Below, in pieces: positions 15,050 to 18,000 of a stretch of 64,000 nt of DNA. How positions within the stretch are numbered: position 1 is the first letter of the stretch; each line of letters opens with the position of its first letter. This stretch comes from Escherichia coli (lineage in GTDB: Bacteria; Pseudomonadota; Gammaproteobacteria; Enterobacterales; Enterobacteriaceae). The stretch lies in the NCBI RefSeq assembly GCF_046105845.1, contig NZ_CP151004.1. The stretch is one strand, 5' to 3'. The position numbers were made by a program.

Positions 15050-18000
15050 TAGTTTGTAAACCGTCCGGCACTCAATTGCCAAAAAGAAAAAAGCCAGCAG
15101 ATAATCACTGCTGGCGTGGCGATTAACACCAATACTCAGTCACACATGATGTCCGCAAATCAGTAGTCAGAATGACTCCCCTCCCACTGCATCAGTTCTT
15201 CAAGCATAGTTAATCGTTGTGGGACGCTTAACCAACGCAACCAGCACAACTTCGCTGTCGCGGTAAAATAGTGCTGATAAAACTGACGCATGGGGCACCT
15301 CCTTGCTTCATCGTTAGGAATTATTGACTTAATATAGGGAAAATAAAATTGCTGACTTTTGCGCAGGAGTTCCCCTTTTATGCCATCTGCTCGTCTGCAA
15401 CAACAGTTCATCCGCCTGTGGCAATGCTGCGAGGGTAAATCGCAGGACACGACGCTCAACGAACTGGCAGCGTTATTGAGCTGCTCGCGTCGTCATATGC
15501 GCACCCTGCTCAACACCATGCAGGATCGCGGCTGGCTGACGTGGGAAGCGGAAGTCGGGCGCGGCAAACGCTCGCGTCTGACGTTCCTCTATACCGGGCT
15601 GGCGCTTCAGCAACAGCGAGCAGAGGACCTGCTGGAGCAGGATCGTATCGATCAACTGGTGCAACTGGTTGGCGACAAAGCGGCTGTGCGGCAAATGTTG
15701 GTTTCTCATCTGGGACGCAGCTTCCGCCAGGGGCGGCACATCCTGCGCGTTCTCTACTATCGTCCGTTGCGTAATCTGCTGCCCGGCAGTGCATTGCGTC
15801 GTTCCGAAACCCATATCGCCCGGCAAATCTTCAGTTCGCTAACGCGCATAAATGAGGAAAATGGGGAACTGGAAGCGGACATCGCCCACCACTGGCAGCA
15901 AATTTCACCGCTTCACTGGCGTTTCTTTTTGCGTCCAGGAGTCCATTTTCATCATGGTCGTGAACTGGAAATGGACGACGTGATCGCCTCTTTAAAACGA
16001 ATCAATACGCTGCCGCTCTATTCGCATATTGCTGACATTGTGTCGCCGACACCCTGGACGCTGGATATCCATCTCACGCAACCGGACCGCTGGTTACCGT
16101 TACTGCTGGGGCAAGTTCCGGCGATGATCCTGCCGCGCGAATGGGAAACCCTCAGCAACTTTGCCAGCCATCCCATCGGAACGGGTCCGTATGCGGTGAT
16201 CCGCAACAGCACCAACCAACTGAAAATTCAGGCATTCGATGACTTCTTCGGTTATCGGGCATTAATCGACGAAGTTAACGTCTGGGTTCTGCCGGAAATT
16301 GCCGACGAGCCAGCCGGAGGTCTGATGCTCAAAGGTCCACAGGGCGAGGAAAAAGAGATTGAAAGCCGCCTGGAGGAAGGTTGCTACTATTTACTTTTCG
16401 ACAGCCGCACCCCTCGCGGGGCGAATCAGTCAGTAAGAGACTGGGTAAGCTATGTTCTCTCCCCCACCAACCTGGTCTATTTTGCCGAAGAACAGTACCA
16501 GCAATTGTGGTTTCCGGCCTACGGAATGCTGCCGCGCTGGCATCATGCCCGCACGATACAGAGCGAAAAACCTGCCGGACTGGAAAGCCTCACCCTGACC
16601 TTTTATCAGGATCACAGTGAACATCGGGTTATTGCCGGGATCATGCAACGGATTCTGGCGACGCATCAGGTGACGCTTAACATCAATGAGATCAGCTACG
16701 ATCAATGGCATGCCGGAGAGATAGAAAGTGACATCTGGCTTAACAGCGCCAACTTTACGCTGCCGCTGGATTTTTCGCTGTTCGCGCACTTATGCGAGGT
16801 GCCGCTGCTCCAACACTGTATTCCGATCGACTGGCAAGCCGACGCCGCCCGCTGGCGCAATGGCGAAATAAACCTGGCGAACTGGTGCCAGCAACTGGTC
16901 GCCAGCAAAGCAATGGTGCCACTTATCCACCACTGGCTGATCATTCAGGGGCAACGCAGTATGCGCGGCCTGCGTATGAACACCCTCGGCTGGTTCGATT
17001 TTAAATCAGCGTGGTTTGCGCCGCCGGATCCAGAGTAGCTTGCGCCTTTTGGCGGTGATGAGCGCGTTTTTTATATTCAGACGGAATGAATAAAATACAT
17101 TACTTTTATATTTTCTCTGTTTTATGCATCGTCTGATTAGCGTCGCAAATAAGATTAAAGAAGGGGCATTCCAGCCCCTCTTTCATATTCTGAGTTAATC
17201 AATAACGGCGCAGTCTGGCCTTGTTCTGGCCGGAACGGTCAGCTTTTTCAGGTTAACCTCGCACAGGTCAGTCATACCATCTGCTATTGTTCATTTCAGC
17301 ATTGCTCAGGTCAACCTCGAGACGGTCAATACCACTAATGACAACCCCGTTAAAGTAAGCATTACTCAGATCAATGCACCCGGTCCTGGTGTTCTCTTTC
17401 ATCTGCAACTCCAGAGTAAATATCGCCTCATCGCCAATAAAAAAACTGACTCTTAACGTATCTCCTGACGAGAGTGAGGCCTTCGCGGCCATATTTTCCG
17501 GATCTATTGCATGTTCTTTGAGTTTATTAAAATTTATCAGCCAGTGGGTAAAATTATCACGCGCATCCCCATCGACAGCCCCGGTAAAGTATTTTGAGTA
17601 GTCATCACTATTATGGAAATAAAATGCATCCTTCAGAATTTGCCTTGCCGCAGTCTGGGAATGTTTATCTGACCGGAAGAGATTGCGTAACGTCTCCCAT
17701 AGCTCTTCAAAGATATTCATATTCTCGGACTTTTTGACCAGGTTAACCATCCTCATAATCTGAGAATGAGTAAGGCCTGGATCTTTAGTGGTATTACTAG
17801 CAGAGATACTAATCTGTTCTGGGTTTCTTACTTTCATGCTGATAGCTCCACTCTGAGTTAAAAACTCAGAATAAGCGTACTGAATAAGAATACTGTCAAA
17901 AATCGCTCATTCACGCAATAAGCCGTTGCATTACCGATTTTGACTGTGCTAAGGGATTCTTTCGGTTCAAAGCTTCCCAGCTATGCAAATACGTCCTTGA

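Follow-up and report, generated by a model that had tools for sequence, protein, structure and literature searches.

In Escherichia coli K-12, the sugar efflux pump gene setA is co-transcribed with sgrS, the gene of a dual-function small RNA, from a promoter activated by SgrR, and only transcripts that continue through the sgrS terminator express it (Morita et al. 2015, PMC4509938; PMC9765468). The setA start codon lies 27 bp past that terminator (PMC4509938, PMC9765468). SetA appears to make a modest contribution to recovery from glucose-phosphate stress (PMC4021124). SgrS of K-12 is 88% identical to the SgrS of CFT073 and O157 and 99% identical to that of A/B1 strains (Horler & Vanderpool 2009, PMC2760817), and setA has been listed among the genes gained by an A/B1 sublineage (González-Alba et al. 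2019, PMC6896753). Here we describe the junction of leuD and sgrS in a 64-kb stretch of an E. coli genome (contig NZ_CP151004.1; the whole stretch is called the window below), at which setA is absent and the small RNA gene abuts leuD. The window belongs to the setA-less haplotype of the Sakai/CFT073 type, a common and old allele of E. coli. Very probably it carries the old, genus-typical form of the locus, which an early single loss of setA would have produced, with the gene entering K-12 again at a later time.

The window belongs to E. coli, with the best complete genome at 99.0% identity over 14 kb and all others at 95–99%. Its junction comprises the following features.

14447–15052, plus strand: leuD, a 201-amino-acid open reading frame (ORF) for the small subunit of 3-isopropylmalate dehydratase, the last gene of leuLABCD
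15050–15052, plus strand: the leuD stop codon, TAG
15053–15085: spacer of 33 bp separating the leuD stop from the SgrS 3' end; the K-12 equivalent measures 1.26 kb including setA
15086–15312, minus strand: sgrS, the dual-function small RNA, as the CFT073/O157-type allele (Rfam RF00534)
15081–15115, minus strand: SgrS intrinsic terminator from the terminator scan, made up of a hairpin at 15093–15115 and a U-tract at 15081–15092 (UUUUUUCUUUUU)
15129–15145, minus strand: conserved base-pairing core of SgrS (CCAATACTCAGTCACAC on the plus strand), the same in both haplotypes and family-wide
15160–15291, minus strand: sgrT, intact in translation, 43 amino acids
15380–17038, plus strand: sgrR, the activator of sgrS, intact, with 537 of 551 amino acids identical to K-12 SgrR (97%)

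A preliminary description, made from the sequence of this stretch, had proposed that setA is missing beside sgrS and that K-12 carries the gene at this place. Both statements are correct. In K-12 a setA of 1179 bp lies between sgrS and leuD, while the window has the 33-bp gap at 15053–15085 and nothing else; alignment of the two junctions gives a clean gap block of about 1.22 kb with setA on the K-12 side only. Across the whole window, a tblastn search with K-12 SetA returned a best E value of 1.2, a blastn search with setA returned only chance words of 14–17 nt, and an SetA-like ORF of about 392 amino acids (MFS, PF07690) was found neither downstream of sgrS nor anywhere else in the window.

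The remaining genes of the locus are complete, again as the preliminary description had stated. SgrS matches its Rfam model over positions 1–232 of 232 with 227.6 bits against a gathering score of 37, and all features of the family are present, i.e., divergence from sgrR, an encoded SgrT, the base-pairing core, and a Rho-independent terminator with a long U-tract. The terminator had been placed at 15093–15116 with the U-tract at 15081–15092, and the scan agrees, reporting a hairpin of 8 pairs with a 7-nt loop and the tail TTTTTTCTTT (15115–15093, minus strand). On the minus strand this 8-bp hairpin is followed by UUUUUUCUUU... in both scan and fold, and the 66-nt 3' end of SgrS folds with an 8-bp stem at a minimum free energy of -20.9 kcal/mol. 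The SgrT of the window is the protein WP_001248768.1, annotated in KE55, CU532-9, and CFT073; its C-terminus reads EELMQWEGSHSDY in translation, compared with EGLMQWDDRNSES in K-12.

The setA-less junction is widespread. A query of 1451 bp spanning leuD, sgrS, and sgrR was searched in 5426 complete E. coli genomes and matched 5399 of them at 8634 places. The junction is contiguous in 2164 genomes, Sakai included, and split in 3235, exactly at the SgrS 3' end; K-12 setA was found in 3241 of the 5426. With 2164 contiguous junctions and 3241 setA carriers, the two states are complementary. A strain lineage lacking setA, which the preliminary description had offered as an alternative to deletion, does exist. 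K-12 is unrepresentative here, as about 40% of complete E. coli genomes lack SetA, have another SgrS 3' end and another SgrT C-terminus, and would send any sgrS read-through antisense into leuD. The SgrS allele that matches that of the window has been tied in the literature to strains outside A/B1. Statements on phylogroups rest on named reference strains and the literature.

The haplotype can be recognized by its layout, in which the leuD stop is followed by a spacer of 31–33 bp alignable to TTTGTAc.CCGtCCG..ACTCAATcGCC and then by the SgrS terminator. The window shows this layout, and the spacer can be aligned among CU532-9, KE55, Sakai, E. albertii, E. whittamii, Escherichia sp. E1V33, and the divergent 'E. 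coli' SCPM-O-B-8794. The window also has the linked alleles, namely the SgrS 3' end, the SgrT C-terminus (…EELMQWEGSHSDY), and the LeuD C-terminus of the setA-less (Sakai/CFT073) type, and its sgrS 3' segments are 100% identical to those of CU532-9 and Sakai. The closest complete genome at the junction is KE55 (99.3%), whose sgrR contains about 37 extra bases and is annotated as frameshifted.

Outside Escherichia, the order is different. One genome per GTDB species was scanned with an exact 17-mer seed from the SgrS core (CCAATACTCAGTCACAC), which returned 116 loci, 114 of them enterobacterial. At 106 of the 116 loci setA lies directly downstream of sgrS, with leuD just past setA in 64 of these. 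The genera bearing setA include Citrobacter, Salmonella, Enterobacter, Klebsiella, Raoultella, Leclercia, Lelliottia, Cedecea, Atlantibacter, Trabulsiella, Mangrovibacter, Siccibacter, and Shimwellia, among others. At four loci, all of them Escherichia, leuD abuts sgrS; the remaining loci are uninformative (four) or chance matches (two). The arrangement sgrR-sgrS-setA is found at all 104 informative Enterobacteriaceae loci from outside Escherichia, which argues that sgrR-sgrS-setA-leuD is ancestral and that the setA-less junction is derived in Escherichia. Moreover, the occurrence of the same junction with an alignable spacer in several Escherichia species suggests one event older than those species. 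A separate observation concerns a record labelled Chryseobacterium sp. 18061, which contains an enterobacterial sgrR (80% amino acid identity to E. coli) and the SgrS core, and which probably reflects contamination or mislabelling.

In the history that these comparisons suggest, the ancestor of the Enterobacteriaceae would have had setA directly downstream of sgrS. A single early loss within Escherichia would then have removed the gene and left a spacer of 31–33 bp, a state that the window would keep. The deletion put forward in the preliminary description thus holds as an event, placed at the base of the genus, and fails as a change private to this strain.

Besides the setA indel, K-12 and the window differ in the SgrS terminator and the linker, in the C-terminus of SgrT, and over the final ~100 nt of leuD. 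These differences form a block tied to the presence or absence of setA.

14900–15182, no strand assigned: haplotype block, with the right breakpoint just before CCCACTG (15183) and the left breakpoint within the last ~100–150 nt of leuD

As read from the alignment, the breakpoints are sharp. In successive 100-nt intervals the identity of the window to K-12 is 92% (from 14900), 74% (15000), 74% (15100), and 99% (15200), with 97–99% on both sides. Within leuD, nucleotides 1–400 are 98% identical to K-12, whereas the last 106 nt (501–606) are 84% identical to K-12 and 91.5–93.4% identical to other Escherichia species. K-12 itself reaches 84–89% to other Escherichia species over these 106 nt, and either haplotype is 81–83% identical to Salmonella. 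In sgrS, the 37 nt from the core seed to CCCACTG are 92–97% identical between the window and other Escherichia, while K-12 is only 62% identical to the window and 57–65% to the outgroups. Past CCCACTG, the next 110 nt of the window are again 98% identical to K-12.

These identities bear on how the window came to lack setA. It could be supposed that the gene was recently and precisely deleted in this strain or its close relatives from a K-12-like sgrS-setA-leuD; K-12 has setA at exactly this place and the alignment gap is a clean block of about 1.22 kb. However, a recent deletion would not be expected to leave flanks that differ from K-12 by 16–38% over ~280 bp. The identity is 74% in 15000–15200, against 97–99% to either side, and the junction predates the species. 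It is shared by 2164 complete genomes of E. coli and by four further lineages of Escherichia, and the spacer can be aligned among them. Short direct repeats, which the preliminary description had considered as a possible trace at the junction, are not recoverable beyond chance at the K-12 boundaries, where the longest shared word is 6 nt and is reached by 66% of shuffles, although this test is weak, as the deletion took place in a sequence other than the K-12 flanks. We regard a recent deletion as very improbable. Removal of setA by an assembly or scaffolding artefact is hardly credible at all, as the junction is the same base for base, single-nucleotide polymorphisms aside, in finished genomes such as Sakai, CU532-9, and KE55.

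The 33-bp spacer was also considered as a relic of the setA 3' end, as by eye it resembles the last codons of Citrobacter setA, with CCGTCCGG shared. This idea was rejected because the alignment scores equal those of shuffled sequences. Local alignment of four Escherichia spacers to 60 outgroup intervals gave scores of 15.4–16.7, compared with 15.3–15.7 ± 2.1 after shuffling, and the best matches in these 60 intervals did not cluster at the setA stop.

The presence of setA in K-12 has to be explained as well. The best outgroup identity of K-12 setA is 79.7%, to the Citrobacter freundii group, and the neighbouring sgrR and leuD reach 79% and 81–84% in the sampled outgroups. The sampled genera (Citrobacter, Salmonella, Enterobacter, and others) were therefore rejected as recent sources of setA, whose best identity of 79.7% does not exceed that of neighbouring core genes. 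E. fergusonii as the donor is argued against by its SgrS, which is only 81% identical to that of K-12 (Horler & Vanderpool, PMC2760817). In a search with the SetA protein for intermediate homologues, the matches listed were all near-identical E. coli SetA, and one match at 94% came from a contig of the usual order sgrR-sgrT-setA-leuD on which the ORF had been called longer. Escherichia sp. MOD1-EC7003 carries setA and an SgrS 3' end that are 98–100% identical to K-12, whereas its sgrR and thiB are 90–96% identical. This contrast indicates a recent transfer of the cassette from one Escherichia species to another, through homologous recombination in which one crossover fell within sgrS.

Two histories can be compared on these grounds. 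If both haplotypes had been kept as an ancient balanced polymorphism since the origin of the genus, K-12 setA would have been inherited vertically; this is consistent with its distance from Citrobacter and Salmonella, which equals that of sgrR and leuD and fits an ortholog of Escherichia depth, with the Escherichia-typical HDD codons retained at the 3' end of K-12 leuD, and with the fact that no donor of the K-12 cassette was found. A setA-bearing allele maintained for so long should, however, be comparably diverse to the setA-less haplotype, which shows species-level divergence (92–97%). Instead, setA is near-invariant, being at least 99% identical in 3228 of its 3241 carriers and 98–100% identical to its counterpart in another species of Escherichia, and a gain in an A/B1 sublineage has been reconstructed (PMC6896753). 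Low diversity of setA combined with deep divergence of its flanks favours a fairly recent re-introduction over two long-kept alleles. We consider the balanced polymorphism unlikely, and it is reasonably probable, to judge from these identities, that an unsampled donor gave setA back to the A/B1 part of E. coli at a fairly recent time.

Under early loss followed by re-entry, the setA-bearing haplotype of K-12 would be a block of about 1.5 kb in which setA is accompanied by the SgrS 3' end, the C-terminus of SgrT, and the final ~100 nt of leuD. The distance of this block from all other Escherichia is about that of a separate genus, yet the block is near-invariant among its carriers. It would move between Escherichia lineages by homologous recombination, with leuD on one side and the sgrS 5' part and sgrR on the other as arms, and most likely re-entered E. 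coli rather recently. We lean, by a small measure, toward regarding the textbook sgrS-setA operon of K-12 as a mosaic. On this view, setA was lost at the base of Escherichia, and homologous recombination rather recently brought a cassette of about 1.5 kb from an unsampled donor of roughly genus-level divergence into A/B1 and, from there, into at least one further species of the genus. The cassette would at the same time have replaced the terminator and 3' end of SgrS, the C-terminus of SgrT, and the final codons of leuD. If this is true, SgrS and SgrT as found in the window are the native forms of Escherichia.

Several points weigh against the history of early loss and later re-entry. The direction of change inside Escherichia rests on five species-level loci of the scan plus E. 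coli, and the retrieved loci do not include E. fergusonii, E. marmotae, or E. ruysiae, owing either to a mismatch in the exact 17-mer or to their absence from the one-genome-per-species returns. A donor of the K-12 cassette was not found among the sampled outgroups. The flank segments are short (37–106 nt), which makes the estimates of depth noisy, and the same picture would result from an old polymorphism that persisted in some Escherichia lineage outside the sample. Finally, as the sequence covers 64 kb, a setA copy elsewhere in this genome is judged improbable by analogy with the complementary population counts.

The setA-less junction may also affect function. By extension from work on K-12, the glucose-phosphate stress response encoded in the window would consist of SgrR, base-pairing by SgrS, and SgrT, without the efflux pump, and transcripts that pass the sgrS terminator would enter leuD in antisense orientation. 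A consensus scan of the window found no intrinsic terminator on the plus strand after leuD, the only terminator there being on the minus strand. Hence, transcription of the leu operon may run into the sgrS hairpin and past it, where the plus strand reads GTGGCGATTAAC. In K-12, folding predicts a hairpin of -17.4 kcal/mol after leuD. It was also considered that the sgrS hairpin might serve the leu operon as a bidirectional terminator; this was rejected because the U-tract side is found on the minus strand only and the consensus scan gave no support.

The setA-less arrangement is already known, since it is visible in reference annotations and setA is treated as lineage-specific in the literature. 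As such, its discovery value is small: the annotations of Sakai and CFT073 show the absence of setA, two SgrS alleles were published in 2009, and setA is listed as a gene of the A/B1 lineage. For those who study SgrS evolution or use setA read-through reporters, the present comparison offers a modest refinement, namely that setA is ancestral in the family and was lost once in Escherichia, and that the K-12 cassette is deeply diverged yet near-invariant.

On the other side of sgrR, the window contains an insert of about 1 kb (17033–18042) between the sgrR stop and the thiamine pyrophosphate (TPP) riboswitch and thiB. K-12 and CFT073 lack the insert, which occurs in 1034 of the 5426 complete E. 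coli genomes and carries the following gene.

17268–17837, minus strand: espY2, a type III secretion system (T3SS) effector gene of 189 amino acids, named from the RefSeq annotation of matching genomes (ECs_0073 in Sakai)

No NCBIfam family model matched this 189-amino-acid ORF. The adjoining sgrR 3' end (16400–16900) is 85–89% identical to K-12, compared with 97–99% upstream, so that a diverged block lies beside the espY2 insert in the same pattern as around the setA indel. A similar dip in identity to K-12 is seen at the corresponding sgrR positions of Escherichia sp. MOD1-EC7003. Farther along the window, a unit of 84 bp (26873–26956) is present once, while K-12 has it at three tandem positions (96–98% identity); this is probably a difference in copy number of a repetitive extragenic palindromic (REP)-type repeat.

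Among described systems, the locus of O157:H7 Sakai (ECs_0072–ECs_0075) is highly similar to that of the window. It has the same gene order, thiB-espY2-sgrR-sgrS-leuD, lacks setA, carries espY2 between sgrR and thiB, and shares the spacer and the SgrS 3' allele; it is colinear with positions 8001–20508 of the window without indels, at 96.2% nucleotide identity. Sakai differs in the start codon of sgrT, which is ATT in place of the ATG at 15289–15291 of the window, where sgrT is intact. The ATT start agrees with the published loss of SgrT in O157:H7 (PMC2760817). CFT073 (sgrR-sgrT-IS200C-leuD) also lacks setA and has the same SgrS and SgrT allele (WP_001248768.1) as the window, but differs in lacking espY2 and in an IS200C transposase gene inserted into the short spacer between the U-tract of the SgrS terminator and leuD.

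The K-12 sgrS-setA operon resembles the window in sgrR, the sgrS promoter, the sgrT body, the base-pairing core, and the convergent orientation of leuD and sgrS. However, K-12 has setA 27 bp past the terminator, a hairpin of its own after leuD, and a different SgrS 3' end, terminator loop, and SgrT C-terminus. In the family-wide synteny sgrR-sgrS-setA-leuD (Horler & Vanderpool 2009, PMC2760817), sgrR and sgrS are divergent and adjoin the leu operon as they do in the window, and thiB (tbpA) flanks them on the opposite side. This synteny differs in that setA is kept downstream of sgrS, where the window, like most of the Escherichia species sampled, has none.

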